From positions 12,639-76,638 of the IMG/VR virus record IMGVR_UViG_3300003323_001224: a stretch of DNA of 64,000 nucleotides; one strand, written 5' to 3'. Numbering within the stretch: position 1 is the first letter of the stretch; each line of letters begins with the position of its first letter. Position numbers and translations under genes: made by a program. The notes under the pieces are model-generated. The model saw nothing but the letters and a program-made list of their open reading frames with translations, ran no database searches and was not told the origin of the DNA. The stretch comes from a virus. Below are positions 9,801 through 60,792 of the stretch, in pieces.

Positions 9801-12022
9801 ATATACCATGGAAAGAAAATCACTTTCGGGTATTATGGAAAGAGATCCCTGGTTCAAAAAGCGGGAAAGAGCAATTCTTTACTGGTAACCGGCCATTTGA
9901 AGGCAACCGTGGCTTTATGCACCGGGCCACGCTGGCGGATATGTCAGAGGGGATTAAGCGAGGTGGTGTACCTGTGTCAACCAATCCTATTACCATGTTT
10001 AAAATAGCCTACGCGGATGGCATGAAATACATCACCGCGCAGCGCATGTGGGAAGGTTTGAAAAAGGATAAGCTCGTAAAATTTGTTCGGCTGGGGCAAG
10101 ATCCGCCAGAGGGATTTGTTAAGCTCAATGATCGGTTGGCGAATGTGTACTTCCGCACCCCTGGAGAACAAACATTGCAGTCAGCTCCAGCAGCAAATGC
10201 GATGCCGCATAAACCAGGAACAGTAATACCCATACCTGAAGGCCATGCTGTTTATCAAGGGCAGCTCCATGAAGTTGAATACAAGCCGGGTGTAGGACCT
10301 GTGAAAGCTGGTGAATATTGGATCGACAAAGGTGCCGGCAGGCTATTGAATAATTTTCTTTCGCGTGATCATATTCGAGAAACCCGTATAGGCCGTGGTC
10401 TAATGGAGATCAAAAATCTTTATACAGCAGCTGAATTGGGATACAGTGGCTTCCATGCACTAGCTGAAGGACTGGAAGCGATAGGCTCACAGATCGGCAC
10501 CGGCATTCGTAAAATGGTTAACCTCGGGGATTTTAAAGGTGGGGTGAAAGACATCATTACGTCGCCCGCTTCGTTGAAAACAACAGCCTCCTTAGGGGCA
10601 AGAGCGATAAAATATGCAACGAGTGAACAATTCAGGCAATCCAAAATGGGACAAGAATTCCTTCGGAGGATGCCTGACATAGATCAATACATCGATGATA
10701 TGTTCCAGGGCGGTGGATTATTGAAACAGCATGAGGATTTTCAAGCCAAAACAAAAGAGATTTTTCAAGAACAGTTTAATAAAAAAAATTATATCGGAGC
10801 TGCTGTACGGGCGATTCCCGCTATCAATGATCTGGTAATGAGTCCACTTTTTCAAATTTACATTCCACGCCTTAAAGTTGGCATGTTTATGAAAGAATTC
10901 CCGCTAAGACTTCAGGAAAATGCCGAAAGATTAGCAAAGGGAGATGTTACCCGGCAGCAGCTGGCGCGAGAAACAATTGATTTCGTTGATGACCGATTGG
11001 GCGAAATGAATTTCGATAACCTTTTTTGGAATAAGACGTTCAAAACTGCTCAACAATTCTTTTTACGTTCAGTTACGTGGAAATTGGGTTCTATTAGAGC
11101 CATAGGTGGGATATTACCAGAGCAATTTCGCGAATTCAAGGCAGCGGCGGATGAGGGGCGGAAACCCAAATTAATGCCAAAAGCAGCTTGGGCCTTGGGC
11201 CTCGTGACGATGCAAGTAGCTTTAGCTACGCTCATTCAACATATGCTTGCGCATAAAGATATCGAATCGGGAACAGATCTCGTAGCGCCACAGATCAATC
11301 CGGATGATCCTACTGAAAGAACAGTATTGCCGACCTATATTAAAGACTTCCTCCACATCTATCATAGCGCCACGTCCAAAGATAAACTTAGCTACATTAC
11401 CTCATCGACAGCGGGGCAGCTCAGTAAACTGTATGACTTATGGCAGAATAAAGATTTCTATGGATATGAAATACGGGATGCGAATGCAGGCTTCTTAAAG
11501 CAAGCGGAACAATCGCTGTTATATGTAGCCCCTAAACCTTTTTCCGCCTCTTCTACCTACGAAATGATTAAAAGTGGCGAACCCTGGAGCAAGGCACTTC
11601 TCAGTTTTGCTGGTCTACAAAAAGCACCTGGGTGGTTAACCCACACCGATCTTGAAAACAAGATCATGGAATTGTACGGCGAAAGAAATGCTGGCACGAA
11701 GCCTTATAATGAAAGGGAGGCAAACCAGGTAAAGAAAGAAATTAGGCAATTATTCAAAGAGGGGGAGAATGATGCGGCTCACGAAAAACTGGATCAGGCA
11801 ATTAAAGGAGGCATTATCCGTAGGTCACAAGTTAAAAATCTCGTGCAATCTGCTCGCAAGAGCGGGGACGCCTCTCAATATTTCTTTTCCCGCCTGCCTT
11901 TTGACGATAAACGGGCTTTATACGAAGACATGAACGAGGAAGAAAAAAAGATCTACGACCCGAAAGGCAAACTAAAAGCACAATTGGAACAATTGCAACG
12001 CGATAAAGAAAAAGAAGAATGA
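6881..12022 (+). CDS. Large internal virion / ejection protein
   Basis: 1713 aa, helical, with Gly/Ala-rich segments and an acidic linker; podovirus ejectosome position. Confidence 0.55.
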   Translation: MAEEEIIASPEEEQQVDDQPQGPGPGPQLPEANQRELANIIRKMQADNIPDDRIKSVVHTYYSKYATAPIEQPNYRQIPREQRRQEGVTPTQQTEQRLDISQDPNAVARRERYGNMRKQAIQEIESPEWQKKIFGGERPALTDYPDMPVQAFQKVNPKALDEYLNTVDLDPANKYWLRNQLLNYGKFRQSQFYVEQRAKAKIDAMPEADRNNEVLVNKAYQQASQEFDKHETDAIANRLNNIGLDDRPLRGSSPFHDQITGANKALMGVMNYAADLGQQVSSILELGHVPGLSDLGYKLKTTADNLKAKNEIPQNGEAGNLLAGEILPMALDMEALRRLTGAAGRPLYRSLAGARASGTLGKFAEGALGGVAVSPVNSYIIAHQYYNDLVKNGEEPGKAATKADQLLGKNLATDMLMTPLQMGLLKIPAGNWIKKALLVAPAEGVVAGTHFTLQDFNQKSTENPAMHIMDYLGNGEWKSPFITGAALGMLQKSAVDAMENWSVNSESRNMFSFGRQYGGDVRRSLPSNETIANNVLAAMEIKDVPRRTNELKELTNTLHEEGIYSKKELDIVDGIIDDVSAVKDKVPKFGSPQQRMAVFNELLNIHSTEKFLAQAGNEAGEKYINEFNKASQARIQRILAGEEPLYFINGNETNKEQLLRALNENPELLESKGVKIDIHNDPTTIKQIEQLKTERDAIQKQSATAPDVRPASDNSEAMGGRNEGERPVDQEAAGEETGEEELNKMPGADKVAEEIDSGKITDDDLLRTIQSSINETQQSLQELPEGAPAEAGGDQTNGGVGQGSETEGAASVLPETGERATPGDQDTGTEPLSSDTGTADEAGVVQEAGMPSAYIPEFYEQDVKPTLKNISENISDAYNLLKRAYDPRAGVSEKALTHIMKALGDRNHVMAIMDAGMRSFEKMFNKMPDQDRIDFIDRMKRGVPQATPELDKVAKLIRGLDDALYSELNKFKANIPWKENHFRVLWKEIPGSKSGKEQFFTGNRPFEGNRGFMHRATLADMSEGIKRGGVPVSTNPITMFKIAYADGMKYITAQRMWEGLKKDKLVKFVRLGQDPPEGFVKLNDRLANVYFRTPGEQTLQSAPAANAMPHKPGTVIPIPEGHAVYQGQLHEVEYKPGVGPVKAGEYWIDKGAGRLLNNFLSRDHIRETRIGRGLMEIKNLYTAAELGYSGFHALAEGLEAIGSQIGTGIRKMVNLGDFKGGVKDIITSPASLKTTASLGARAIKYATSEQFRQSKMGQEFLRRMPDIDQYIDDMFQGGGLLKQHEDFQAKTKEIFQEQFNKKNYIGAAVRAIPAINDLVMSPLFQIYIPRLKVGMFMKEFPLRLQENAERLAKGDVTRQQLARETIDFVDDRLGEMNFDNLFWNKTFKTAQQFFLRSVTWKLGSIRAIGGILPEQFREFKAAADEGRKPKLMPKAAWALGLVTMQVALATLIQHMLAHKDIESGTDLVAPQINPDDPTERTVLPTYIKDFLHIYHSATSKDKLSYITSSTAGQLSKLYDLWQNKDFYGYEIRDANAGFLKQAEQSLLYVAPKPFSASSTYEMIKSGEPWSKALLSFAGLQKAPGWLTHTDLENKIMELYGERNAGTKPYNEREANQVKKEIRQLFKEGENDAAHEKLDQAIKGGIIRRSQVKNLVQSARKSGDASQYFFSRLPFDDKRALYEDMNEEEKKIYDPKGKLKAQLEQLQRDKEKEE

Positions 12023-12612
12023 GCGGATTATATAATAAGAAGTCGTTCGAGCATTGTCAATTCAACCCAATGCATACAGGGAAGATGCTACAGGCCTTTC
12101 CTGTGATTAATGAGATCATATTGCCTGAATGGGTTGATGATATGCTGGATACGATCATACGCTATACCATCATGGTATATGATCCTAAGAGCCCGTTGAC
12201 GGTAGGAGAAAGAGATTTAAACTACCGCAAAGGGATCGCCATGGAATTGTTAGAAGTGACAGATGAGGAGACCATGCAAGCCTTTTACACTTGCAACTAT
12301 CCGAACCTTGTTGAATTCACTGTAAAATACCTGATCCGATTTATACGCAGTCGCGAATGGGCAGCTATCTGCGCATTTGAAGCCAAATATTGGGAGGCCA
12401 TTAAGTTGATTATGCTACCCATTTCTACTGATAAGTCTGACAAAGAGCAGTTAGAAGCCGCCAATAAAAAAGATGTCTTATCAGCAAGCATAGATGAAGG
12501 GTTAAATAAACTGGACCTCTATTACCGCAGGTTCTTCGGCGACGATGAAGAGATGCTCAATCGCGCGAAGCGGCGTCTTACACCGGAATTAATGGCCGGA
12601 AAAGTTACGTAA
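12019..12612 (+). CDS. Putative terminase small subunit
   Basis: 197-aa helical ORF directly upstream of the large terminase; positional call. Confidence 0.45.
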   Translation: MSGLYNKKSFEHCQFNPMHTGKMLQAFPVINEIILPEWVDDMLDTIIRYTIMVYDPKSPLTVGERDLNYRKGIAMELLEVTDEETMQAFYTCNYPNLVEFTVKYLIRFIRSREWAAICAFEAKYWEAIKLIMLPISTDKSDKEQLEAANKKDVLSASIDEGLNKLDLYYRRFFGDDEEMLNRAKRRLTPELMAGKVT

Positions 12613-14616
12613 ATGTATTATCCCATTGAGAACGGGACCGTGGAGGTCATACAGGACTATCCCTGTCAACTGCCCCCTGTTGGCTATGGAAAGAATAGGC
12701 TGACGGGCGAAGTGGAATACGTAGGTATTGTAAAGACCGATGCAAAGAAGGAAAAACAAAAATGGAAAAGGTTTGAACTGCCGAAGGATTATGAGAAGAA
12801 AAAGAAACAGGAAGAGCAGCGCCAAAAGGAAGAACCAGATCATTATAATCCTGACCTGGAAAAGATCCGGACACAACATTGGAAATACCGCCTCTGCGGT
12901 TTTTGGTTATATATAAATGGCATACCGACCTACATTCCGCCGTCCTATTATATGTATCTGCAATGGTGCCCGCTGGATATTGGTTACCCGGCTTATCGTG
13001 ATACGGATAGGAGATTTTTTTATGTATGGGAATATTGCGTGGAAGATCCGCGCTGTGCTGGTCTGATTGATATTGAACGCCGACGGATGGGAAAAACCTA
13101 TAAGAGCGGGTCTATATTACTAGACAGAACATCGATAGCCAGCCACCACCACGGCGGTATACAAAGCAAGACAGGACAGGATGCCAAGGCGGTCTTTTTA
13201 AAGACAGTAGTTCCGTTTTTTAAAAAATACCCTGATTTCTTTCGGCCAGTATTTGATCAATCCAAGGGTATGTCACCGACCACTGAGCTAAGGTTTTTTC
13301 AGACCAGTATTAAAGGCAAACGCGCCAGCGAGATCGTCGATGCGCCTGAATTGGAATCATGGATTGATTGGGGAACAGCAGAACCTTTTCATTATGACGG
13401 ATCGAAGTTGAATACTTATGTGTGCGATGAATTTGGCAAAACCCTTGAATCGAGCGTTGTTGACCGTTGGGATGTAGTCCGCTTCTGTTTAGATCAAGAT
13501 GGAGATTGGTGCGGTAAAGCTCTCTTTACTTCTACAATAGAAGAGATGGAGAACGGCGGGGTAGATGCGAAAAAATTATGGGAAAATAGCAATCCCGCTG
13601 ATAGAAATGAGAATGACAGAACCAAAACAGGACTATACAGATTTTTCTTACCTGCATACGAAACGACATATTTTGATGAATATGGTATGCCAGAAGTTGA
13701 GAGAGCAAAAACTTTCTACCTGAATGAACGGGCGGGCTTGGTGAAGGACCCAAGACAGTTGTCATCTATCATTAGAAAGAATCCTTTCTCGATTGAAGAG
13801 GCATTTCGAATCGATGGAGATACGTGTTTATTCGATGCGATGAAATTAAATGATCAACTGGATTTTTTGTCCTGGCGAGAGAACATAACAGAACGTGGAA
13901 ACTTCGAATGGGAGAATGGAGAACGTTACACAAAAGTGGTTTGGAAGAAAAATGCGAACGGTAGATTTGAGATGCCTGTCGGTTTTCATTTCGACAATCC
14001 AAACGAAGTAAAAAAGATTAATGATCAGTTTATACCCCAGAATAATGTTCGGTTTGTATGCGGATGCGACCCTTTTAAATATGACCGCGTAAAAGATCAG
14101 CGCCGTTCCGATTGCGCGGCATTTGTATTCCAAAAATTCTCCCCAGGAGATGATACGTTTAATGATTCGTTTGTTTGTAGATACAAACATAGGGCACCAA
14201 CCACGGGCATGCAATATGATGATGTCATTAAGATGTGTTGGTATTTCGGCTGTCAGTGCCTTTTTGAATGCAATATCGATAACTGGAAAGAATATTTTAG
14301 GAATGCACATTGTTGGGCATTCCTGATGATCTTACCTGGAGAATCAGATCCGGGTCTTTACGCCGATGGAGGCGGTAAAACCCATCAGCTAATATGCGAC
14401 TTGACTGAAGATTATATTGATAAGAATATTAAAAAGGTACTGTTTAAAGCGATGATTGAGGATTGGTTGCTGTTTAAGTTGGACAAGACAACCGACTTCG
14501 ATGAAACCATGGGCGCCGGCTATACATTGATTGCAGCTCGAAAGAAGCTCTACAGAAAAAATGGAGATATCCAGCGTGACCTGACAGACTTTTTCAGAAT
14601 TTATAAAGCAAGTTAA
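12613..14616 (+). CDS. terL: Terminase large subunit
   Basis: Walker A-like RRRMGKT, Walker B YVCDEFGK, nuclease motifs CGCDPF and DFDETM. Confidence 0.9.
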   Translation: MYYPIENGTVEVIQDYPCQLPPVGYGKNRLTGEVEYVGIVKTDAKKEKQKWKRFELPKDYEKKKKQEEQRQKEEPDHYNPDLEKIRTQHWKYRLCGFWLYINGIPTYIPPSYYMYLQWCPLDIGYPAYRDTDRRFFYVWEYCVEDPRCAGLIDIERRRMGKTYKSGSILLDRTSIASHHHGGIQSKTGQDAKAVFLKTVVPFFKKYPDFFRPVFDQSKGMSPTTELRFFQTSIKGKRASEIVDAPELESWIDWGTAEPFHYDGSKLNTYVCDEFGKTLESSVVDRWDVVRFCLDQDGDWCGKALFTSTIEEMENGGVDAKKLWENSNPADRNENDRTKTGLYRFFLPAYETTYFDEYGMPEVERAKTFYLNERAGLVKDPRQLSSIIRKNPFSIEEAFRIDGDTCLFDAMKLNDQLDFLSWRENITERGNFEWENGERYTKVVWKKNANGRFEMPVGFHFDNPNEVKKINDQFIPQNNVRFVCGCDPFKYDRVKDQRRSDCAAFVFQKFSPGDDTFNDSFVCRYKHRAPTTGMQYDDVIKMCWYFGCQCLFECNIDNWKEYFRNAHCWAFLMILPGESDPGLYADGGGKTHQLICDLTEDYIDKNIKKVLFKAMIEDWLLFKLDKTTDFDETMGAGYTLIAARKKLYRKNGDIQRDLTDFFRIYKAS

Positions 14617-15144
14617 ATGGAACAAGAAGTTTGGAAAGACATCCAGGGCTATGAAGGATATTATCAAATTTCGAATCTCGGCAGGTGCAAATCTTTAGCG
14701 AAGACTGTTCGTGGTAGGCGTGGCGCACTTGCGGAGAGGATATTAAAGCCACAATTTAATGGGCATTATTATCACCTCAGATTATCAAAGGATTCAATTT
14801 GCATGATGCATCTTTTGCATCGACTAATTGCTACGGCTTTTATCCCTAATCCTAAAAATCTTCCAGTAGTCAATCATTTAGATGGGGATAAGCTAAATAA
14901 CAAAGTTTCAAATTTGGAATGGACAACTATTGGTGATAATACGCGGCATGCCATTAATGAGCTGGGAATTGTCTTGGGTGGTGAAAAACATCATGCAGCT
15001 AAGCTGACAGAAAAGAAAGTTAAGAAAATAATAGAGCTGGCAAATACAGGCCTATCCCATAGCAAAATAGCTAAAATGTTCAGTGTCAGCAGGCCGAATA
15101 TAAGTTATATCGCTAGGGGTGCGACGTGGAAACATGTAAAATAA
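14617..15144 (+). CDS. NUMOD4-HNH homing endonuclease with C-terminal HTH
   Basis: EVWKDIQGYEGYYQISNLGR (NUMOD4); HRLIATAFIPNP..VNHLDGDKLNN..NLEW (HNH). Confidence 0.9.
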   Translation: MEQEVWKDIQGYEGYYQISNLGRCKSLAKTVRGRRGALAERILKPQFNGHYYHLRLSKDSICMMHLLHRLIATAFIPNPKNLPVVNHLDGDKLNNKVSNLEWTTIGDNTRHAINELGIVLGGEKHHAAKLTEKKVKKIIELANTGLSHSKIAKMFSVSRPNISYIARGATWKHVK

Positions 15145-21437: not shown

Positions 21438-22682
21438 ATGGCAGATCTGTCACAATACATATCTATTGCTGTAGTGTTGGACAAAAGCCAACCAAGCCCC
21501 ATTTTTCGTATTGTTGATAATAGCAACTATCCGCTGGGTGTGGCGCAAACGATTGCGGGGATCTTGAGTGTAACCCAGCCAGATAATATTACCATTCAGA
21601 ATACGGATTTCTCACAGCCAGATATATACTGGAATACGAGTGCCCTCGTACCTGCTGATCTTGAGCTGAGATTAGATAATACGGGCAGCTTCCAAAGAGG
21701 AGGCAGCGGCTATCGTATTATTTATACAGTTCGGGCGCCTGGGTATGATGATACTATTTTGACGAAAGTCTTTTCGCTTTCTTACACTCCTCCTGCCATT
21801 GTCATCACCAATAATTTTGATATATTCACGCCGGATCTATCCGTCCAAGATAGCACCAACTACAACCAATTATCCCTAGATTTTATTTCCGTTGTCAGGG
21901 CGTGGTTAGCGAACATTATTTCTGTTGAAGGCACCACGCAAATCATCAGCGGGACCGATCAGGTGTTCGATCTCAATTATCTTGGGAGTTACTACGACTC
22001 CCAATATGATATTACCCTATCCATCACTCCTCAATGGCGCTTACAGGGGACATCCAATTTTGTTACGATCATCGATGAATTGGCCGATGACATTACGCTC
22101 TATGCGCAAATACCGCCTTCATTAGCTGACCTACAAGTAGACCTTGCGACACTCAAAAGTGAACTTGATGCAGCAGTCTGTGATTGCAATTTATACCGCA
22201 TATTGTTTGATCGATACAATTTAGCTAATTCCATCTATTCGCAATTGGTGGCAAGAGGACAGGCAGGGTCGTTGTCTGGATTGGATGTATATATATATCA
22301 ACTGGAAAAGATTTTCAATAATAATGTTAACCCCACCTATGAAAACACGAATGAGATAATTCCGGCTTATGACTGGAATACCGGTGGCGGAGGCAGTGTG
22401 GCTTGGACCAATATAACCGGAAAGCCCAGTTCTATCACTGTTGAATGGGTCGTCGGGCAAATGGGGTATCCTGGTGAAGGGGCGACTACTTACACGAATA
22501 CTAATATGGTCAATGTACCCGTAAGTAGGATTTATGTTTTTCGAAACGGATTTCCGCAATTCTCCTCCAATCCGCCAGATGGAGACACCTATTACACTAA
22601 GAATCTTGCTGATAACTTCCTGACTTTTTCGGTAGCGTTGGGTCTAAACGAAAAAATTATCATACTCATACTTCCTCTATAA
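21438..22682 (+). CDS. Putative virion structural protein
   Basis: 414 aa, acidic and beta-rich, with a VAWTNITGKPS fibre-type repeat motif. Confidence 0.5.
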   Translation: MADLSQYISIAVVLDKSQPSPIFRIVDNSNYPLGVAQTIAGILSVTQPDNITIQNTDFSQPDIYWNTSALVPADLELRLDNTGSFQRGGSGYRIIYTVRAPGYDDTILTKVFSLSYTPPAIVITNNFDIFTPDLSVQDSTNYNQLSLDFISVVRAWLANIISVEGTTQIISGTDQVFDLNYLGSYYDSQYDITLSITPQWRLQGTSNFVTIIDELADDITLYAQIPPSLADLQVDLATLKSELDAAVCDCNLYRILFDRYNLANSIYSQLVARGQAGSLSGLDVYIYQLEKIFNNNVNPTYENTNEIIPAYDWNTGGGGSVAWTNITGKPSSITVEWVVGQMGYPGEGATTYTNTNMVNVPVSRIYVFRNGFPQFSSNPPDGDTYYTKNLADNFLTFSVALGLNEKIIILILPL

Positions 22683-28587: not shown

Positions 28588-28663
28588 CGGGTAGTGCGGA
28601 AGTGGTCATCCTCCGTGCCTTGGAAGCACGGCAACGCTGGTTCGAATCCAGTCTACCCGACCA
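28588..28663 (+). tRNA. tRNA-Pro(TGG)
   Basis: Cloverleaf, CGTGC-CT-TGG-AA-GCACG anticodon arm, GGTTCGAATCC, encoded CCA. Confidence 0.9.
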
Positions 28664-28752
28664 GGAAGGTATGCCAGGCGGTTGGTAGCGCCAGCCTGTC
28701 TTGAAAACAGGAACCCATTCAGTTGGGCGGGGTTCGAATCCTCTGCCTTCCG
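28664..28752 (+). tRNA. tRNA-Ser(TGA)
   Basis: CCTGT-CT-TGA-AA-ACAGG, long variable arm, GGTTCGAATCC. Confidence 0.85.
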
Positions 28753-28760
28753 CAAATGAA

Positions 28761-29258: not shown

Positions 29259-29260
29259 AG

Positions 29261-29334
29261 TAGCGAGATCGGGAATCGAACCCGAGACCTTTGAGTTATG
29301 AATCCAATGCTCTTACCATCTGAGCTATCTCGCC
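29261..29334 (-). tRNA. tRNA-Met(CAT), elongator type (Ile2 not excluded)
   Basis: GGCGAGATAGCTCAG...TT-CAT-AA...GGTTCGATTCCCGATCTCGCTA. Confidence 0.85.
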
Positions 29335-29357: not shown

Positions 29358-30806
29358 TTAAAATTTCCTTGAAAAATCATGCTCCATATTTCCTAGCATA
29401 AGGCCTAACCCATCCTTTAAATATTCTTCCGTCATGCTGGGTGTAGCATGCCCGCAGTATTGTTGGATAAGCGCAATAATAACCCCCCCCATGTACATAT
29501 GGATGCAGCGGGTATGCTTCCAGGAATAATTAGTTAATTTAGGTGAAAATCCTCCAGGCTCCCGTACTTCATCCCTGAATTTGTCGCTAAAAAAAGCGCG
29601 ATTCGTAGGGACCGGTCCCGGTGGCCCATCTATACCAAAGATGTAGTAGTGACCCGGACAATCCTTTAAACCCATTCTGATAAAAAGTTCTATCAGTTCC
29701 GGTTCCATGTGAATGAATCTGCCGCGCCCCTTTTTTGCCTTTTCGTCGGGAATCATTAATTTATTTCGACCCCAAAGAATATTTTCCACTTGTAAGTTAC
29801 GTGTTTCCTTATCAGGCCGGGTGCCCGTGTAGTATATTACCTCACTAAAATCATGCAGGTATTTTCCCCAATAAGGGACAGCCAGAATTGCCTTTTTCAC
29901 AGCCGGTATGATACTATCTTCAAAAGGAGTATGCCTGATCTTAGTTCCCTTCCTCATCAACTCGACACCTTCAGCAGGGCTTTTGCTTATAATCTGTAGT
30001 TCGTCTTTACAATAATTAAAAAATGTAACAAACTTTTTTACCTTATCATTGTATGTCAAAGGCGCCCATTCCTTTTCCTCTCTCTTTGCCGCGAGAAAAT
30101 CTTCCAGGTCATCTTGCGTGAAGGTCGCAATATCATCATACCACTGGCTTTCTTCCAATAGCGTATTTTTAGCTATATGCTTTTTCAACAAATTCAAGGG
30201 CACTGCATATGACTTTCGGTTCACTTCATCATAGTGTTGCAAAAAAAGCTCACTGGCCGCATTCAAGGTAATGACCTGCTTTTTAGCTTTCTTTTCTGCC
30301 TCTTGTTCGGCTAAGATCCTATTATACTCGTCTATCTCATATTGGAATGGGCTGAAGCCATTCTCTAGCTCTTTAAGCATGGTGGCCAACAGCTGGAGCG
30401 CAAATTCAGGGTCCTGCGCGACTCCTTTGAAAACGCGAAAACGTTCCCATTCTCCCGGCGCATTGTGTCGCTGTTGCAATACGGGCGGTAGCCCAGGAGG
30501 CACCTTAAAATAGTATTCAATATACTTTTTCTTCCCCTCAACGAGCTTGGGCGGTTTCCAGGTTATGTATTTTCCCGTTGACACTTTTTTGGCAATTTCC
30601 TTTGTCAAAAATACGAACTTTTTGATTTTCAGGTCTTTGTTTTTTTTAGGGTTGATCGCGTGTATCAACTCGGCATTTTCGACTTCCGGAGTATTGCTGA
30701 TTTTCAGCGCTTTAGATTTTTGCATGGTGATCTTTTTTAGGCGATTTTGGCAATTTTTTGACAATTTTTCTGAGCCAAATCTACATCGAATTCGCCATTT
30801 CTGCAA
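29358..30806 (-). CDS. int: Tyrosine recombinase / integrase
   Basis: YYTGTRP (R), KAK (K), YSWKHT, CGHA, TEEY (Y); SAM-like domain upstream; true start probably downstream of 30806. Confidence 0.85.
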   Translation of the reverse strand: MQKWRIRCRFGSEKLSKNCQNRLKKITMQKSKALKISNTPEVENAELIHAINPKKNKDLKIKKFVFLTKEIAKKVSTGKYITWKPPKLVEGKKKYIEYYFKVPPGLPPVLQQRHNAPGEWERFRVFKGVAQDPEFALQLLATMLKELENGFSPFQYEIDEYNRILAEQEAEKKAKKQVITLNAASELFLQHYDEVNRKSYAVPLNLLKKHIAKNTLLEESQWYDDIATFTQDDLEDFLAAKREEKEWAPLTYNDKVKKFVTFFNYCKDELQIISKSPAEGVELMRKGTKIRHTPFEDSIIPAVKKAILAVPYWGKYLHDFSEVIYYTGTRPDKETRNLQVENILWGRNKLMIPDEKAKKGRGRFIHMEPELIELFIRMGLKDCPGHYYIFGIDGPPGPVPTNRAFFSDKFRDEVREPGGFSPKLTNYSWKHTRCIHMYMGGVIIALIQQYCGHATPSMTEEYLKDGLGLMLGNMEHDFSRKF

Positions 30807-30833: not shown

Positions 30834-33102
30834 GTTGTGAATTCCTTTTAAAATTGAACGCTCAGTAACTAGAATACAAACTGATGTTCAACCTTTACTG
30901 TTGTAATTACATTTACAAAAAGTGCATTCAACATTGATACATATTACGGCAAGCAACATGAATGTTGTGACTTCCTTTTCAAACATATTATTTAGGGAGG
31001 GCAATAAAATAAGATGGATTATAAAGCATTATAGTCGTACTATCCTTAGTACGCTACTAAGCTTGCGTTGTGACTTCCTTGTTCAGTGGTTCAATATCTT
31101 GCGATCTTCTCTAAAAAACAACAGTCAATGAGTGGCCAAAACTCTGGCAGTTGTGAATTCCTTTCAAAATGGATTTTCCTACAACCCAAGCTGCGTAGGT
31201 AAACCTTCCTGTTGTTGTGATTTCCTTTTAAATAGATGCAGCCTACAATTCCCCTTCAACTAACTTTCAAAGCCATATAACCATTTTCTCGTTGTGATTT
31301 CCTTTTAAATAGATGCAGCCTACAACTGGTGAGTAGGTTGTTGTTTCCGAGGAGCAGTTGTGACTTCCTTTCAAAATTAAGCTTCCTACAGCCAACCTCC
31401 TCTATCCTTATATTCCTGAGTTGTTGTGACTTCCTTTCAAAATTGAGCTTTCTACAACAAATGCTTAAAATTGGATTCCATAGCCATAGTTGTGAATTCC
31501 TTTCAAAATTAAGCTTCCTACTACTGGACAGGGCCTGGGGTAACAGGACATAGGTTGTGATTTCCTTTCAAAATTAAGCTTCCTACAAAGTATAGCTTTT
31601 TGGATATTTTTCACGGTAGTTGTGACTTCCTTTCAAAGGAAAGGTTCTTGCAACTTTCATAGGTGGGGTTTACATTGTTATCGAGTTGCGACTTCATTTC
31701 AAAAATTGAGGTTGATACAAATGGCGCCCCTGGACAAGTTCTTTGTCACCGTTGTGACTTCCTTTCGAAATCAAGCTTTCTACAACCCTAGCCCACATAG
31801 GCACGGGATACCATTGGTTGTGACTTCCTTTCGAAATTAAGCTTTCTACAACTCATTAATCCTGCCTCCGCTTATCGTTCCTGTTGTGAATTCATTTCAA
31901 AATTAAGCTTCCTACAACAATTATGGCAAATATATATAACGACTCCTAAGTTGTGACTTCCTTTCAAAATTAAGCTTCCTACAACCCCTGGCGATTAACG
32001 TGACGTCCCATTAATGTTGTGACTTCCTTTCAAAATTAAGCTTCCTACAACCAAACAATGTCATACTTTTATAATTAACTCGTTGTGACTTCCATTCAAA
32101 ATTAAGCTTCCTACAACTAAGTTCACGAACATCATATGAAGATAGGAGTTGTGACTTCCTTTCAAAATTAAGCTTCCTACAACCAGCCGACGGGCGGCTA
32201 TTTAAATAGGTTTGTTGTGACTTCCTTTGAAAATAAAGCTTCCTACAACAGTCAGCCCAATTATAAGAGATACACCTATGTTGTGACTTCCTTTAAAAAT
32301 AAAGCCTCCTACAACTTACCAAAACCAGTGACAACAACGGGACGTGTTGTGACTTCCTTTCAAAATTAAGCTTCCTACAACAATGTTCGATCATTCCTTT
32401 TTTGAAAGTACGTTGTGACTTCCTTATAAGCTTCCTACAACCGGCGCATGGCATGGGTACGCAAATGAAGTGTTGTGACTTCCTTTCAAAATTAAGCCTC
32501 CTACAACACATCAGCAGCGCAGATACCGGCAATTGCCGTTGTGACTTCCTTTCAAAATTAAGCTCCCTACAACAAAAATGAAAAAGGTTTACAATGTCTC
32601 GTAGTTGTGACTTCCTTTCAAAATAAAGCTTCCTACTACGGTCGATGTTTTGATAAGTCATCACTCATAGTTGTGACTTCCTTTGAAAATAAAGCTTCCT
32701 ACAACTGTTGTGAGCAACTACGTATAGGCGTGCTCTGTTGCGACTTCCTTTAAAAATAACCTTCCTACAACAGCGTGCCCAAGATCAGCTACGACGCCAA
32801 TGTTGTGACTTCCTTTCAAAATTAAGCTTCCTGCAACCAGCAACCAATCCTCAATCATTGCTTTGAAGTTGTGACTTCCTTTCAAAAATAAGCTTCCTAC
32901 AACAGGACCTGATAACAGGCCACACGACATTACGTTGTGAATTCCTTTCAAAATTAAGCTTCCTACAACCGAGATCCTTTTCACGTCAAACGACCAGCAG
33001 GTTGTGAATTCCTTTCAAAATTAAGCTTCCTACAACAGGCCCAGTCCGCTCCCGTCCGTCAGCCGCGTTGTGAATTCCTTTCAAAATTAAGCTTCCTACA
33101 AC
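30834..33102 (-). CRISPR. CRISPR array of about 34 repeats (30 clear from 31150, 4 degenerate), 36-nt repeat, mostly 30-nt spacers
   Basis: + strand repeat GTTGTGA(C/A)TTCCTTTCAAAATTAAGCTTCCTACAAC with ~66-bp period; degeneration towards 30834 puts the leader at the 33103 side. Confidence 0.97.
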
Positions 33103-33281
33103 CTGTTTCGCTAGAAAGCACACCTCTCCTGCATTACAGCCTATATTGTCACAATAAAAATGCGAAACATTCTCGAAAAAATGAGAATAATAAATTAAAA
33201 AAAGGATTCAGGAGTGCTTCACGGCCTCCCGCTCAGGACGTACAACCGCCCCCTAATATTTTCAAAGAACTTGATGAGATT
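33103..33281 (-). ncRNA. Leader plus candidate guide scaffold/tracrRNA
   Basis: About 80-nt GC-rich segment ending in a T-run just after the cas gene stop, then an AT-rich leader. Confidence 0.4.
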
Positions 33282-34376
33282 TTATTGTATCAAAAGTTCA
33301 ATCCCAAACTTTTTGCATTTGTATTGTATCATGTTTATCAATCCATGATACGACCAGTTTCTTAACAAGAACTGATTTTTTGGATCTTTCGCTTCCTCCT
33401 CTTTCTCCTTCTGATCAACGAGAATCAATTTGCCGCATCGATATGCGACGCACAAATCTACCAATTTCTTACTATAACTGTGCAATTTGGTCTGCACATA
33501 ATGTCTTTCTTCTTCAGAGAAACGTTCAGTGGCTTGCAGCTTCCGTTTTCTACCTTTGCCTCCTTTGTTGAACCGAGCGGCTCTTTGCGCTCTTCTTAGT
33601 CCCTCTTGTATACTAATTCTACCGTATAAGAACTCATCTTTGGTCCCGATGGATAATTCCTTTCTATTTACTTTGGCCACAATAGGTACATCCAGGCTGA
33701 GAGAAGCTGTCATAGCAACGTCCACATCCAAAACTACTGGTTTTTTTTCAATTTCAAAGACTGCTAATAAAAAAATTTTCTTTTTCTTCAACTGTATAGA
33801 ACTATCGCAAAGAGAATGTATGCCTTTCAAAGCTTCCTCCATCAGCAACCGGTTATTGCTAAAGTCATAACCGAAATGCGTTCGAAACGGAATGCCCCAC
33901 ACTTCAAATTTGTAATTTTCGCTGTCTTCAGATAAAGACCAATTGCGCATAAGAATAGTTGGCAGCGGCATTGGAATGTCTCGGCGATAGGTTCGCAAAG
34001 CGCGCTTTCCGGAAAAATATTCCTTCCGCTCCTTGCTAATGTTTGCTGTGACGAGGTTGTTTATCGCAGAAACACTTGCCATTGGCGCCTCGCCCTTGAA
34101 CTTTTTTGAATTTACCTGGTAGGTTGTATTGGGACGGCTCGTAGTTAATATCCCCTCTTCCGCTTTAATTCTATCCTTCAATGTGATTTTGAAATCATCA
34201 TGAAGATAAAAGAATTCGGAAATATTTTCCTGAAAATATTGATGGGTGGCCGTGTGGTTAGCAGCCCTAAATATTATTTCATTCCATTTGCGCAATTTTG
34301 CATAATTATCTTTAAACTCTTTTTTATCAGAATCTATAAATAATTGAATTTTTCTTGTTATGATATTTTTAGCCAT
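33282..34376 (-). CDS. Cas12f/TnpB-family protein, predicted nuclease-dead
   Basis: ITRKIQL N-terminus, CDSSIQL, GGKGRKRKL, H.YSKKLVD and LRNWSY..L..MIQYK...GI Cas12f motifs; RuvC-I (TASLS) and RuvC-II (LILVD) lack catalytic D/E; ends before the Zn finger and RuvC-III. Confidence 0.8.
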   Translation of the reverse strand: MAKNIITRKIQLFIDSDKKEFKDNYAKLRKWNEIIFRAANHTATHQYFQENISEFFYLHDDFKITLKDRIKAEEGILTTSRPNTTYQVNSKKFKGEAPMASVSAINNLVTANISKERKEYFSGKRALRTYRRDIPMPLPTILMRNWSLSEDSENYKFEVWGIPFRTHFGYDFSNNRLLMEEALKGIHSLCDSSIQLKKKKIFLLAVFEIEKKPVVLDVDVAMTASLSLDVPIVAKVNRKELSIGTKDEFLYGRISIQEGLRRAQRAARFNKGGKGRKRKLQATERFSEEERHYVQTKLHSYSKKLVDLCVAYRCGKLILVDQKEKEEEAKDPKNQFLLRNWSYHGLINMIQYKCKKFGIELLIQ

Positions 34377-35234: not shown

Positions 35235-35236
35235 AG

Positions 35237-35306
35237 GTGCGGTCGCCGGATTCGAACCGATCTTTAGGGTTATGAGCCCTATGTGCTGCCGTTACACTAC
35301 CCCGCA
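35237..35306 (-). tRNA. tRNA-Met(CAT), initiator-like
   Basis: TAGGG-CT-CAT-AA-CCCTA (three G-C pairs), GGTTCGAATCC; acceptor stem imperfect. Confidence 0.7.
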
Positions 35307-35315
35307 AAATTACAG

Positions 35316-35387
35316 TTCTCCCTACGGGATTCGAACCCGTGATGACGCCGTGAAAGGGCGCCGACTTAACCGCTTGTCGAAGGGAGC
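35316..35387 (-). tRNA. tRNA-Glu(TTC)
   Basis: GCGCC-CT-TTC-AC-GGCGT, GGTTCGAATCC. Confidence 0.85.
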
Positions 35388-35390
35388 GGG

Positions 35391-35484
35391 TGCGGAGGGG
35401 AGGATACGAGCCCCCACGAAATTAACCTAGAATAAATTTCCATTCATTAGACTGAATGCCGTCTACCAGTTCCGGCACCTCCGC
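35391..35484 (-). tRNA. Atypical Leu-type tRNA with CTA in an irregular anticodon loop (pseudo-tRNA or suppressor)
   Basis: GCGGAGGTGCCGGAACTGGTAGACGG 5' half, long variable arm, CATTCA-GTCTAA-TGAATG, deviant T loop. Confidence 0.55.
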
Positions 35485-35499
35485 AAATCCAATACTTTA

Positions 35500-35820
35500 A
35501 AATAGGGGCAGGTCGTATCCTGCCTGCCCCCAATCATTGTTACGGTTTACAAGACCGCTGCTGATAATGAGTCAGCTGGCAAATTGAAGTTTTCAAACAG
35601 CCTAATGCTCATGCTGTCGTCTGACGATCTACCATCTGATCTACCCCCCCTCCGGGGCGGCTGCTCCGGAGGGGGGGACAGGACTCGAACCTGCGACTTT
35701 CAGATTACCGACTGCTTGACTTCAACAAGTGAAACTTAGCTTAAAGCTTTTGACGCAATGCTTACGCTCATATCTAGGATCTGTTTAAGCTGATGCTAAA
35801 GCTAAAGCTTTGTCAAAGAT
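35500..35820 (-). ncRNA. Structured ncRNA containing a circularly permuted tRNA-like domain (35620-35704)
   Basis: T arm, then loop-closed acceptor stem, then D arm, closed by TCTGA/TCAGA and further stems. Confidence 0.65.
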
Positions 35821-36612
35821 TTATTTTCCGTGAATATATCCAAAGATCTTTTCAGCTGTTAGGCCAGACTGTACAACTTCAACTTCATTGGCTTTTGCCA
35901 AAGCCTCCCGCACTGACTCCTTAAGTTTACTAAGCCTATACAACATTGCCGCTCTATCGCGATGGGAAATCTCACCGGAAAAATGCTGTACTGTCTGCAT
36001 CCCCAAAACGACTTGCGTATCCTTAGAAGCTATTTGAGGCTTATAACCAGATCCATCCTTTAGCAGTTGAATATTTGGATCGGGGAGAATGTATGATTCC
36101 TTCAAGGTAGTTCTATTGGCACTTTCGAAAACTTCTGTTTCCCAAATATTTTCTGACTTCATCTCGCTGTCGTTGGATCGCACCCATTTGATATCATCTC
36201 TCCGGACAGGTAGCGTTTCGTACATTTTTGATAATTCTTTCGAATCCAAAAATGACCGCAAGCGCAAAAGTTCAAGTGTCGTATACTTCCCCCAATCTTC
36301 GCCATCAACAATAAGATTGGCGGTCGCTTTGCCGGTGGCATTTGTCGCCTCAATGGCAAACAAATTTGTTATGTGATCGCCGCAGGTGTCCAGAAAATAT
36401 TTGAGATACTCCGGCACTGAATTTTGTACCGGTTTGAATCCCCTTTTCGAAGGTTCATCTAAGTAATCGCCTTCTGCTTGATAAGTTTGCCGCACTCCCA
36501 CGAAAATTTGGGACTTATGCTTATCAGCAAAAGTGGCTACATATTCCTTCAGCAATGCATTGTACTGAGTACCTGAATGTTCTGTTTTGGCAAGCAAAGC
36601 ATTTTGTTTCAT
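35821..36612 (-). CDS. Conserved hypothetical protein directly upstream of the ncRNA
   Basis: 263 aa from MKQNALL (the longer ORF start overlaps tRNA-Lys); ANLIVDG..ELL.L..LP and FSGE..RL.KLK..V..A..KAN motifs. Confidence 0.7.
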   Translation of the reverse strand: MKQNALLAKTEHSGTQYNALLKEYVATFADKHKSQIFVGVRQTYQAEGDYLDEPSKRGFKPVQNSVPEYLKYFLDTCGDHITNLFAIEATNATGKATANLIVDGEDWGKYTTLELLRLRSFLDSKELSKMYETLPVRRDDIKWVRSNDSEMKSENIWETEVFESANRTTLKESYILPDPNIQLLKDGSGYKPQIASKDTQVVLGMQTVQHFSGEISHRDRAAMLYRLSKLKESVREALAKANEVEVVQSGLTAEKIFGYIHGK

Positions 36613-36630
36613 AATCCTTTTTTTTAATTG

Positions 36631-36703
36631 TTCCGCAACCACGGATCGAACGTGGCACTCCCTGCTTAAAAGGCAGGTGCTCTAACCACTGAGCTATTGC
36701 GGA
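36631..36703 (-). tRNA. tRNA-Lys(TTT)
   Basis: CCTGC-CT-TTT-AA-GCAGG, GTTCGATCC. Confidence 0.85.
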
Positions 36704-36943
36704 TTAATTCATCTTTTTCCTTTGCTGCATCCAAAAATCATTTACTTGTTTGAAAATATGCTCCCACCACGCTGTCAATTCATCTATATTGGGATTCGCA
36801 TGGCTCTCTTTCATCTTATCGATTAATACCATGATACCACCCATAAAAGCCTCTTTCATCATTTGCCATTGATCTGGTGGCGTAATGCTTTTAAACAATG
36901 ATAAACGTTCCATGAAAGTTTCATATTCTTTGTCCAAATCCAT
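36704..36943 (-). CDS. Hypothetical protein
   Basis: 79 aa. Confidence 0.5.
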   Translation of the reverse strand: MDLDKEYETFMERLSLFKSITPPDQWQMMKEAFMGGIMVLIDKMKESHANPNIDELTAWWEHIFKQVNDFWMQQRKKMN

Positions 36944-36948
36944 AACGA

Positions 36949-37215
36949 TTAATTCGATTTAGGTCGCTGCATTATTTTTCTCTCAATCGTCATGAATTCA
37001 CTTCCCGAAAGCAACAAATCCGTTCCGTATTTCGTCCTTACCTTCATTCTCAGATCTCGCCCCGTTTTACTTTTTGGATCGGCGGCGCTGCCATCCAATT
37101 CGCACATTTCCACAAAATCGGTCTCCTCTCCTGACCATTCATGTCCAGGTAGCACAAGTATTTTTCGCCCTTGAAAGAAAGCGTTCAGGTCACCAATAGT
37201 TTTAAATTTTTTCAT
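36949..37215 (-). CDS. Hypothetical protein
   Basis: 88 aa. Confidence 0.5.
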   Translation of the reverse strand: MKKFKTIGDLNAFFQGRKILVLPGHEWSGEETDFVEMCELDGSAADPKSKTGRDLRMKVRTKYGTDLLLSGSEFMTIERKIMQRPKSN

Positions 37216-37222
37216 TGCGTAT

Positions 37223-37432
37223 TCATTTATCCAAAAACGGTATCCCTGACTTTATCTCCATATGTATATGGTATTGCAATTGTGTTTTGGCTGAATTAAT
37301 GATCTTGCCCGCCAACTGGCTAATGTGGCCAATCTCTTTCACATTTACCTGACCCTTTCTAGCTTGCTCATAATACGACAATAGATCTTCTCTCAGATCG
37401 GTGATACCAATAATTTTTTCAGGGTGTTCCAT
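37223..37432 (-). CDS. Hypothetical protein
   Basis: 69 aa, AGKIINSAK.QL.Y motif. Confidence 0.5.
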   Translation of the reverse strand: MEHPEKIIGITDLREDLLSYYEQARKGQVNVKEIGHISQLAGKIINSAKTQLQYHIHMEIKSGIPFLDK

Positions 37433-37647
37433 TTTTCAAAGTCCACTTTAATGCTTGAAGGATAATTATACAATCAACAAGATCGGTTTGTTTCATTAAA
37501 ATTCTTCTATAATATGGCCTATCAGCTGTTGGTATCTTCCATGCACATATCATCCATGCAACATGCATAGCTCGTTGCCTATTTATGTTTCGTTCACAAT
37601 GGTTGGAACAAATAGAACAGCCACATAAAAGTTGGTCATTACCCATG

Positions 37648-37719
37648 CTCCCGCACCTGGATTCGAACCAGGGACCTAGAGATCCAAATTCTCTTATTCT
37701 ACCGCTGAACTATGCGGGG
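37648..37719 (-). tRNA. tRNA-Gln(TTG)
   Basis: AGAGA-AT-TTG-GA-TCTCT, GGTTCGAATCC, unpaired 1-72. Confidence 0.8.
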
Positions 37720-37989
37720 TTATAGCATTCGTATTTTACTTAACTTTTCTCTATATAGCTTCTCCCTATTCACCCAAAATTCCTTTGGTACCTTCGTAAC
37801 TTCTTCCAGCTTGCCTGCAAGATCTTGCGTGATCTTTTTATCCCCTTTTAATAGCCTCCACGTCATGTTGCCCGATAGTCCTAATCTTTCTGCCAACATT
37901 CTCACATTCCATCCTCTATCTTCCATTATCTCTTTTAGCGTATCCCCAGGGCAGGATAATAATTCGAGTTCAATCTTTTTGTTGCTCAT
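37720..37989 (-). CDS. HigA-like XRE HTH protein (orphan antitoxin-like)
   Basis: PGDTLKEIMEDRGW..LAERLG..LLKG..IT..LA.KL....FW signature; no HigB recognised. Confidence 0.75.
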   Translation of the reverse strand: MSNKKIELELLSCPGDTLKEIMEDRGWNVRMLAERLGLSGNMTWRLLKGDKKITQDLAGKLEEVTKVPKEFWVNREKLYREKLSKIRML

Positions 37990-38251
37990 GTGCTTCCAGT
38001 TTATATTCCTGCGGCCATTTATCTCCTGTCCATAAAATAGGCGAAGTCAAGGCTAATTGTTGTAAATTAAATTCTTCTTGAATTTCTGCAATGTCATCAC
38101 CTCCTATAGCATGTCCACGATCACCATACGATGTTGGCTTACCTTCTTCATCGTAATATACTGTCCTTATCTCCAGGTAGACCGAAGATTCGATACCAGA
38201 AAAATTTTGTTCAATAGCCATTACGCGATAATTCCAAGTCATAATTCTCAT
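37970..38251 (-). CDS. Hypothetical phage protein
   Basis: WNYRV...I..VYYD..G.P motif, common in phage small proteins. Confidence 0.6.
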   Translation of the reverse strand: MRIMTWNYRVMAIEQNFSGIESSVYLEIRTVYYDEEGKPTSYGDRGHAIGGDDIAEIQEEFNLQQLALTSPILWTGDKWPQEYKLEAHEQQKD

Positions 38252-38395
38252 TTTAATAAAGCGAGTTGCCCATCACGCGCACCTGGGCCAGGTGTTGAAC
38301 CGAAGTCTCGCCAGTCCGCCGGAAAGGAGAGATAATCGTGCGCTTATTGACTCGCTCAGGATTTACCCCTTTATAAATCCTACACCGTAAGAAGG

Positions 38396-38467
38396 TGGCA
38401 CCGGGCAGAGTCGAACTGCCTACGCCGGGATTTTCGGTCCCGCGCTCTACCGCTGAGCTACGATGCC
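38396..38467 (-). tRNA. tRNA-Phe(GAA)
   Basis: CGGGA-CC-GAA-AA-TCCCG, GTTCGACTC; C at position 33. Confidence 0.85.
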
Positions 38468-41527: not shown

Positions 41528-41983
41528 CTAAAAAGTACCTTCAGCTTTCCATTTCTCCAGCTGCGCTAATCGGTCCTGTTCGATTATTGCCTCTGCCTCC
41601 ATCCTATCCTTCGCTGGTAAAGAAGAAAAAACAATACTCATTAAATAAGCGACTTCGGCCCGAAGCCTGATAATTTCCTTCGCCTGTTCGCTCAACACCT
41701 TCTCTTCTTCTACTTTGGCCATTACAGGCTTCAGAAATTTCTTGTGCGCTACTTTGATCTTGTAAAGCAACTCTTGAGGGGCCGGCTTGTTTTTTTTCTC
41801 CCTCGTCAGCCACCGGCTTATGGTCTCCCGTGCTACGCCTGCTCTCGTGGCAATAGCAGTTTGATCCAACGTATACCCGGACGCTTGTATTATTTCGTCA
41901 ATCAGGGAACGGAGAGGTGGCTGTGCAAGTGACTGCTTTGCCATTTGTGAAACGTTTTGGGGTAAATCTTGATTTTTTTTCAA
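41528..41983 (-). CDS. CI-like HTH repressor
   Basis: QTAIATRAGVARETISRWL HTH; divergent from the cro-like gene. Confidence 0.65.
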   Translation of the reverse strand: MKKNQDLPQNVSQMAKQSLAQPPLRSLIDEIIQASGYTLDQTAIATRAGVARETISRWLTREKKNKPAPQELLYKIKVAHKKFLKPVMAKVEEEKVLSEQAKEIIRLRAEVAYLMSIVFSSLPAKDRMEAEAIIEQDRLAQLEKWKAEGTF

Positions 41984-41989
41984 CGTTCA

Positions 41990-42070
41990 ATCAAAAAAAT
42001 TTTGATTGACTGAAATCTCGTCAAAAATTGATCACATGTGATCGTGTGTGACTACATGTGACTATATTTG
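41990..42070. promoter_or_regulatory. Switch region: operator copy 3 (41990-42006), palindrome GATCACATGTGATC (42030-42043), TATATTTG Bacteroidota -7 box
   Basis: Between divergent HTH genes. Confidence 0.6.
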
Positions 42071-42112
42071 ATCGTGATGGATGCAATATACTAAACGCTA
42101 TCCAATTCGACA

Positions 42113-42352
42113 ATGAATTCGACACTAATATCTAAGAAAAAAGTCAGAGAAATTTTTGAAGTGCTGAGCGAGAGCGAGTTAAGGCAGCTCGAAGATCGCG
42201 TTGCGGGGTATGGTTGGCTGAGCGATACGGCACGCAGGGCGGAGGTACATGTCAATACGATCAAAAAAATCTTGATGAAGGGGTATGGCTACCCGACAAC
42301 TATTCAAAAAATTCGCAACATCCTGACCCATGAAAATAGTACACATCAATAA
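42113..42352 (+). CDS. Cro-like HTH protein
   Basis: SDTARRAEVHVNTIKKIL helix-turn-helix; first gene of the rightward operon. Confidence 0.55.
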   Translation: MNSTLISKKKVREIFEVLSESELRQLEDRVAGYGWLSDTARRAEVHVNTIKKILMKGYGYPTTIQKIRNILTHENSTHQ

Positions 42353-47508: not shown

Positions 47509-47566
47509 AATGAGCCCCGCGTAGAAACGCAGGGCGTGTTGTTGATGTGTTCTAACTTCAAAACAG

Positions 47567-47637
47567 AGACCATCCAGGGAGTCGAACCCTGCTGCACGGT
47601 TTTGCAGACCGCGTGCTAACCGCTCACACAGATGGTC
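47567..47637 (-). tRNA. tRNA-Cys(GCA)
   Basis: GCGGT-CT-GCA-AA-ACCGT, GGTTCGACTCC. Confidence 0.85.
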
Positions 47638-58564: not shown

Positions 58565-59177
58565 GCTCAACAAATTGCAATAATATGAAACGTTACATCG
58601 TCACACCGTTAGGTGTACAATTATTAGGTCTACCGGAAGGGACCATTATCACTACCTCATTGGAACCGCAGCTGAGGTTCTGGCAACCTTTAAAAGATTA
58701 AGCTATGCCTACCACCGTAAAGTACAAAACGAACGAGCAATGCCTACGCGCGTTGCTGAAGGATTGCCATACGATGGAGATCGCGATTATCCGGGAAAGG
58801 ATGTTAGCATGGGCGGAAGAAAACCTGGAAAGGATCAATAAAAATCCGACAAAATGGGACAATCCGATCTTTCACCACGGAAGCTATATCGCCGTCATGG
58901 AAAAAATTATTCAACATCTTAAAATGGAGGATTAGCATGGAAACACTCATAACCGCATCCATTGGTCTTGTCGTGTACAAGGGGGAGTATTACCTTCAGG
59001 TCATATCGGAAAGGGAGAATCATTACTGGACAAAAATCCCAAAGAAATTGGCCTACAGTATGGTGCAACAGGAAATGATTGAAGCAGAAGAGATCGATTA
59101 TGATCCGACGAAAGCGTAACCAAGTCAGCAGTACCATAGATTAGCCTATCAACAACAGGTAAGAACAGAACAATGGC

Positions 59178-59245
59178 CTCCCCTGCCTATTTAGCCTAGG
59201 CAACAGGTAACGCAAGGGCGTCCCGGTTCAAATCCGGGAGGGGAG
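59178..59245 (+). ncRNA. Mini-tRNA-like element (acceptor stem plus T arm)
   Basis: CTCCCCT..CCCGG-TTCAAAT-CCGGG-AGGGGAG-CTAAAA. Confidence 0.6.
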
Positions 59246-60651: not shown

Positions 60652-60792
60652 GTTTCAGAACCGGATTGTACCGGTCGTAAATACCCCCGCCGTGTCTACG
60701 GTGGGGTTTTTATAAAACAAACAAAATCTATAAGCGAACCGGCGCTGCCGGTGGTTCAAGTCCCCCGATAGAGCTAATCAAATTGCAATTAT

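Follow-up and report, generated by a model that had tools for sequence, protein, structure and literature searches.

The 64,000-nucleotide stretch of DNA analysed here (the window) corresponds to bases 12639-76638 of the 76,638-bp IMG/VR virus record IMGVR_UViG_3300003323_001224, which is complete by CheckV and represents a temperate soil phage found in root metagenomes of one study. It carries a CRISPR (clustered regularly interspaced short palindromic repeat) array beside a gene for a nuclease-dead Cas12f (dCas12f), and one spacer of this array, at 32838-32867, is a near-copy of part of the phage's own large terminase subunit gene, terL. We found that dCas12f is the sole Cas protein of this phage-borne CRISPR system, and the reading that we favour, with moderate confidence, is that the spacer serves an RNA-guided, cutting-free targeting of kin phages.

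The spacer is the fourth from the leader end of the array, with its 30-nt guide reading on the minus strand, and is bordered on both sides by 36-nt repeats (32802-32837 and 32868-32903). Its reverse complement is identical at 28 of 30 positions to 14443-14472 on the plus strand, which covers codons 611-620 of the 667 codons of terL (12613-14616, plus strand; phrog_6681, E 8.3e-90), with the coding strand as the non-target strand. The two differences, at 14445 (TTT/TTC, Phe611) and 14451 (GCG/GCA, Ala613), are both synonymous and fall at guide positions 3 and 9, both proximal to the target-adjacent motif (TAM); the 5' flank of the protospacer (14440-14442) is CTG, with G as the base immediately 5' of the target. 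With up to three mismatches allowed, the spacer pattern was found just twice in the whole window, as the array copy and at 14443-14472, and 100 dinucleotide-preserving shuffles yielded no match. Chance would give 1.5e-8 matches with at most two mismatches when all 29 spacers are compared with the complete genome of 76.6 kb. The initial annotation, which had reported this match to the phage's own terminase gene with two synonymous mismatches on the seed side, was thus borne out in full by alignment, codon check and shuffles. Downstream of the protospacer, at a distance of 145 bp, an HNH endonuclease gene (14617-15144, plus strand; phrog_59, E 3e-50) begins one base past the stop of terL.

The array (30834-33102, minus strand) comprises about 32 repeats of 36 nt, well formed over 31150-33102, separated by spacers of 29-31 nt, typically 30 nt. 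About 20 repeats match the consensus exactly or with 1-2 changes; those near 33102 are clean and those toward 30834 degenerate or truncated. It lies 180 bp from the dCas12f gene, downstream and on the same strand. The CRISPR RNA (crRNA) is predicted to be the minus strand, because the array follows the effector gene in the same orientation, as it does in 38 of 61 related viral loci, because repeat decay sits at the gene-distal end, because the gene-sense repeat ends in a 3' motif (..GAAAGG, 4-6 bases, ACA[A/G]C) common to related phage arrays, and because Cas12-family guides sit 3' of the repeat, as the guide does in the solved dCas12f homologue (10.1101/2025.06.10.658880). Read in this direction the guide is of the same sense as the terL mRNA and would therefore not pair with that mRNA, pairing instead with the template DNA strand; the polarity of the array thereby supports the earlier proposal that the crRNA acts on DNA alone. 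One repeat, at 32412-32441, has an internal 6-nt deletion, and the far array end beside the integrase gene (30834-31100) holds three repeat fragments with irregular spacing. A solitary repeat-like sequence was also seen at 58680-58715 (plus strand), 25 kb from the array, at the junction of two small open reading frames (ORFs); the region 58673-58722 gives the best genome-wide duplex with the crRNA repeat (-28.8), although other windows reach -28.2, so that it is not an outlier and may be due to chance. A type VI-B (Cas13b) or type II-C assignment, first suggested by the GTTG...CAAC repeat ends and the 30-nt spacers, was dropped, the neighbouring ORF being dCas12f.

This ORF (33282-34376, minus strand) codes for a protein of 364 amino acids whose match in the PDB is 9n9c, 'Nuclease-deactivated Cas12f' (E 1.4e-91), the alignment running end to end (phage residues 7-363 against 9-364) with about 48% identity. 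Structures of active Cas12f and TnpB gave weaker matches, and a Pfam search of the ORF gave none. Upon alignment with active Cas12f (9nzo), the RuvC-I Asp corresponds to Ser225 and the RuvC-II Glu to Val320 of the phage protein, which stops about 90 amino acids short of active Cas12f and lacks the RuvC-III/zinc-finger end. The lid-motif Phe (F336) and the LRNWSY segment are retained. A dead RuvC and a C-terminal truncation are the defining features of dCas12f in Hoffmann et al. (PMC13472631). Judged from its sequence, the phage effector is a dCas12f, with homology over the full length, RuvC Asp and Glu replaced and the C-terminus truncated; the Cas12-type effector that had been assumed earlier is therefore present as a member of this family. 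Its closest homologues are P0002 (89%) and P0003 (67%). No match to Cas1 or Cas2 (PF01867, PF09827) was found in the 76.6-kb genome. Compared with a type V-F system, the locus has a regular array adjoining the effector; active RuvC and adaptation module are absent. In the same way, no Sigma70_r2 was found in the whole phage genome, where the search returned one sub-threshold 16-bit Sigma70_r4_2 match distant from the locus, and a profile of the sigma-E proteins linked to bacterial dCas12f found nothing within 10 kb of the phage dCas12f gene.

When all 29 spacers were tested against the whole phage genome, four of them proved to be near-copies of the phage's own genes, with 80-93% identity. Besides the terL spacer, that at 31655-31684 (minus strand) matches 22315-22344 at 27 of 30 positions, within the ORF 21438-22682 (plus strand), with mismatches at 3, 8 and 14 and the 5' flank TTT, and that at 32184-32213 (minus strand) matches 60626-60655 at 28 of 30 positions, with mismatches at 11 and 20 and the 5' flank CTG. 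The latter target is at the 3' end of the ORF 60040-60651 (plus strand), to which the guide is antisense. The fourth, weaker spacer (31787-31816, minus strand) matches 59171-59200 at 24 of 30 positions (mismatches 7, 8, 13, 21, 23 and 25; 5' flank GAA; chance expectation 0.0018). The targets of the self-like spacers are all inside coding regions or at their 3' ends, and the flanks at the three close sites are CTG, CTG and TTT. In these three pairs 7 of 90 bases differ (about 8%); six are synonymous third-position changes and the seventh is Asn/Asp. A random single change at these sites would be synonymous in 20% of cases (p = 4e-4 for six of seven), and the differences therefore arose in coding sequence, in the donor or in this phage, and not by non-coding decay of the spacers. 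We infer that close relatives, or an ancestor of the phage itself, were the source of the spacers, the coding sequences of these donors having diverged by about 8% in the meantime.

The clustering of the differences near the motif was not significant, with four of seven in the first ten guide positions (p = 0.17), or 6 of 13 when the weak pair is included (p = 0.24). The absence of a perfect self-match was not significant either, since a divergence of 8-12% puts at least two mismatches in all three sites in 35-70% of cases. The 'synonymous' and 'seed' features therefore need no special explanation. The synonymous differences pointed out in the initial annotation are expected from ordinary divergence of coding DNA, and the self-discrimination by seed mismatches that it proposed loses its ground because a nuclease-dead effector needs none to avoid self-destruction and because the clustering in the seed is within chance.

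Neither allele of the spacer turned up when IMG/VR and Joint Genome Institute (JGI) metagenome contigs were scanned for exact matches. TerL relatives from these collections (43-80% amino-acid identity; IMG/VR and JGI metagenomes; L002-L004 and L145-L153) contain no site within 6-7 mismatches of any spacer, and a distant-mode blastn search with terL as the query returned no hit among 50,697 phage records. One root-metagenome run contains fragments identical to the phage, and pieces 86-90% identical over terminase, portal and structural genes are present in it and in two further runs of the same study. None of the contigs of these three runs spans 14443-14472, one identical piece stopping at 14437. 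Among 401 Chitinophagaceae genomes a single TerL prophage relative, 44% identical, was found. The earlier suggestion that the spacer came from a sibling phage is made plausible by the 86-90% identical relatives, whereas the perfectly matching relative that it foresaw was found in none of the collections searched.

With a profile of the phage dCas12f protein, 60 IMG/VR loci and 80 bacterial loci were found. A CRISPR-like array lies directly downstream of the dCas12f-like gene in 38 of 61 IMG/VR loci. A sigma-E gene with two region-4 domains is directly upstream in 58 of 80 bacterial loci (Pfam check and profile search) and adjacent in none of the 61 viral loci. After removal of near-duplicates (n = 29 viral proteins, the window's included), 22 lack the RuvC Asp and 21 the Glu, and seven more distant ones keep both. 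In a quick maximum-likelihood tree with midpoint root (loci L005-L144), the sigma-E-linked proteins form one 48-row clade (Shimodaira-Hasegawa-like approximate likelihood-ratio test, SH-aLRT, 99), the window's protein being outside it, in a 55-row clade (98). Branching just outside the sigma-E clade together with the window's protein are L064 and L005 (both at about 51% identity) and L006, and the next clade out has 19 rows, of which 16 are viral. The sigma-E-linked bacterial clade is nested in this tree among phage-borne, array-linked forms, a hint that phage or array-linked forms may be ancestral to the sigma-E activator systems.

The nearest viral relative, L064 (IMGVR_UViG_3300041584_000118), has at 11105-13000 a 37-nt repeat in two arrays of 13 and 6 repeats, between which sit a duplicate of the last ~55 dCas12f codons and the leader; this leader contains a strong anti-repeat (-27.5 vs -17.2 ± 2.5 in shuffles). 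A group of closely related phages (L019-L039, IMG/VR sample 3300045988) carries mini-arrays of 1-4 repeats about 350 bp downstream of the gene, whose leader-proximal spacers vary between phages. The first spacer of L021 matches L021:16871-16900 at 30 of 30 positions, in sense orientation inside a 45-amino-acid ORF, and also matches the siblings L020 and L027. Since the leader-proximal spacers differ and one of them matches the group perfectly, spacer uptake appears to be ongoing and matches to kin or self to recur. A small bacterial dCas12f clade without sigma-E was also seen in Chitinophagaceae (L067, L069 and L135; Puia). In L069 (Puia), an upstream co-oriented ORF of 1085 amino acids resembles, by eye, a resistance-nodulation-division (RND)-type efflux transporter, which fits the efflux-linked cluster of PMC13472631.

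In the mechanism that we propose, the minus-strand crRNA, with its repeat-derived handle 5' and its guide 3', would load a dCas12f dimer that reads a short motif 5' of the target (CTG at two of three close sites), and an R-loop would form on the terL template strand of a matching relative. The bound, non-cutting complex would act as a roadblock to transcription, perhaps also to replication or packaging, and would give an advantage over kin to the lysogen, or to the phage during co-infection. The solved homologue is a dimer that recognises a 5'-G, forms an R-loop in two stages, 7 bp at first and 14 bp when full, tolerates mismatches at 11-12 and does not cut (10.1101/2025.06.10.658880). By analogy with it, the resident terL allele, mismatched at 3 and 9, should be bound poorly and the perfect allele of a relative bound, and binding to the resident genome might persist at the 60626 site, where the ten TAM-proximal pairs are clean and position 11 is the first that is mismatched. 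With an effector unable to cut, residual self-binding would be harmless, and the mismatches need not have been selected. Precedents exist both for binding-only immunity, in Cas12m (PMC10442227, PMC11013384), and for virus-borne arrays aimed at kin viruses (PMC6858448).

Several results weigh against cutting-free targeting of kin. No relative with a perfect protospacer was found in the collections searched, and the phage has no Cas1 or Cas2 through which spacers could enter the array. Neither the 401 Chitinophagaceae genomes nor 185,579 species genomes, the latter scanned for the exact pattern, contained an array of this repeat family. No trans-activating crRNA (tracr)-like anti-repeat was detected in the gene-to-array intergenic region, or leader (33103-33281, minus strand), whose duplex with the repeat was no better than in shuffles (-16.8 vs -16.1 ± 2.6). 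The 5' motif G is present at two of the three close sites, the position near the terL 3' end is a poor place for silencing terL itself, and self-like spacers were absent from four further phage records, complete or partial, that carry arrays of this kind.

The same matches could also work on the phage's own genome, where dCas12f-crRNA would tune late or early genes in the lysogen. Such self-regulation would suit a temperate phage whose dead effector renders self-targeting harmless; it would also suit the 60626-60655 site, where ten contiguous TAM-proximal matches and a CTG flank precede a first mismatch at 11, tolerated in the solved homologue (10.1101/2025.06.10.658880), and the L021 spacer that matches its own genome 30/30. 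We nevertheless consider it unlikely: none of the sites is at a promoter, all being in coding regions or at 3' ends, and a selected pairing should co-vary and stay perfect, whereas the targets drift freely at synonymous positions. The terL guide is moreover mismatched at position 3, within the initial R-loop, and a conventional helix-turn-helix (HTH) repressor candidate with a small divergent ORF is present at 41528-42352. The damping of late genes that the initial annotation had considered is improbable here, the site being 56 codons before the terL end and position 3 of the guide mismatched. Alternatively, dCas12f could recruit a host sigma-E with a special C-terminal domain for RNA-guided transcription, which would begin near 14488, some 46 bp downstream of the motif, and continue into the HNH and portal genes. 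The ~48% identity to the solved activator-type dCas12f, with F336 and LRNWSY retained, the numerous rpoE-dcas12f loci in likely host families, and the agreement at three of four sites between the guide sense and that of the ORF containing the site or the next downstream ORF, so that transcription would run with the genes, point in this direction. Against this, sigma-E is missing from the phage and does not adjoin the gene in any of the 61 viral loci, the phage protein falls outside the sigma-E-linked clade, and activator systems have single chimeric 14-16-nt guides, not arrays (PMC13472631), so that we hold this activity to be decidedly unlikely.

It is also conceivable that array and gene are functionless inherited passengers whose matches record old acquisitions, as the repeats decayed at one end, one of them truncated, the absent adaptation module and the lack of a perfect target anywhere searched would suggest. 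This is doubtful in view of an intact 364-amino-acid ORF that aligns full length with a working homologue, of about 20 repeats identical to or within 1-2 changes of the consensus, and of a gene-array pair kept in dozens of phage contigs. A literal cutting Cas12, from whose self-cleavage the phage would be protected by seed mismatches, fits the TAM-proximal location of mismatches 3 and 9. It is excluded because the active site is dead, unless a host nuclease shares the repeat, and we regard it as extremely improbable: in the sole Cas protein the RuvC Asp and Glu are replaced and the RuvC-III/zinc-finger end is missing, no host array of the same repeat family was found in the genomes scanned, and the seed clustering is not significant. 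Cutting-free targeting of kin is thus the reading that we retain. Beyond this phage, it is possible, and we put it forward tentatively, that temperate phages of Bacteroidota carry a self-contained interference module, made of dCas12f and a spacer-acquiring array, which would silence superinfecting kin without cutting, would tell self from non-self by few synonymous differences near the motif, and could be the source of the sigma-E-coupled activators.

A tyrosine integrase gene (29358-30806, minus strand; PF00589, E 8e-10) adjoins a gene for the methionine transfer RNA (tRNA-Met; 29260-29334, minus strand; ARAGORN), and the phage is therefore taken as temperate. The ORF at 41528-41983 (minus strand, 151 amino acids) has an HTH-regulator match (phrog_8, E 3e-4), and the divergent ORF at 42113-42352 (plus strand, 79 amino acids) has no PHROG match; by its arrangement the pair looks like a repressor/Cro-type switch of conventional lysogeny control. 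Eleven tRNA genes were predicted with ARAGORN, two of them with odd anticodon loops (35236-38467, minus strand; 28588-28753; 29260-29334; 47566-47637; 56656-56726). Six are located among small ORFs in an ORF-poor stretch upstream of dCas12f (34.4-39.8 kb), which recoding (TAG or TGA as sense) does not explain, and a DUF7873 protein (35821-36642, minus strand; E 3.5e-31) is encoded among the tRNA genes. The genes for tRNA-Pro and tRNA-Ser (28588-28753) show a 58-92x depth spike in root metagenome runs, probably from near-identical bacterial tRNAs.

The dCas12f family was described recently, as a bacterial RNA-guided activator with sigma-E; this partnership and the array-linked bacterial forms as possible repressors are already published (PMC13472631), the array-linked forms being left uncharacterised. 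The present locus places dCas12f in the complete genome of a temperate phage, beside a long array with spacers similar to the phage's own family, and the gene-array pair is common to dozens of other viral contigs. Full-text literature searches returned no description of phage-borne dCas12f arrays. If the proposed reading is true, the locus would represent a natural, heritable CRISPR interference used in phage-phage competition, and its protein would be a compact programmable DNA binder of 364 amino acids for which many guides exist in nature. The two alleles of spacer 32838-32867, perfect and self, would then offer a ready test of the number of mismatches that divides self from kin.

Among known systems, the nearest are the dCas12f-sigma-E systems of Bacteroidota (Hoffmann et al., Nature 2026, PMC13472631; PDB 9n9c), with which the phage effector shares its length (364 vs 365 amino acids), about 48% identity throughout, the dead RuvC, the C-terminal truncation and the lid-motif residues, as well as a guide 3' of the repeat or scaffold and a G directly 5' of two of the three close targets. 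It differs in being phage-borne, in having no sigma-E gene and in branching outside the sigma-E-linked clade; it has a ~30-spacer array in place of a single chimeric 14-16-nt guide, and its spacers resemble phage genes where theirs match susCD promoters. The same work (Extended Data Fig. 1a,b) describes a 'distinct cluster' of non-sigma-E dCas12f beside CRISPR arrays, proposed as repressors; these also combine a dead Cas12f and an array without sigma-E, with binding-only action expected, but they are bacterial loci whose guides sometimes match efflux-pump promoters, and the main text (PMC13472631) mentions neither phage carriage nor kin-phage spacers. Virus-borne mini-CRISPR arrays (Medvedeva et al. 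2019, PMC6858448) are likewise viral arrays whose spacers resemble close relatives, with imperfect self matches. They are, however, short and effectorless and use the cutting Cas of the host, whereas the phage itself supplies a non-cutting effector, together with a long array. Cas12c is known to confer immunity by binding DNA without cleaving it. Type V-M Cas12m (PMC10442227, PMC11013384) resembles the proposed action as an RNA-guided roadblock without double-strand cutting, but belongs to another Cas12 lineage, to which a PDB search with the phage protein found no sequence relation, and is host-encoded, with adaptation genes near many loci. Finally, the phage TldR proteins, TnpB-like dead repressors (10.1101/2023.11.30.569447, PMC13418256), are also nuclease-dead, RNA-guided DNA binders of the TnpB/Cas12 lineage borne by temperate phages; they use one fixed omega-RNA guide against a host flagellin gene, whereas the phage described here has a multi-spacer array that resembles phage genes.

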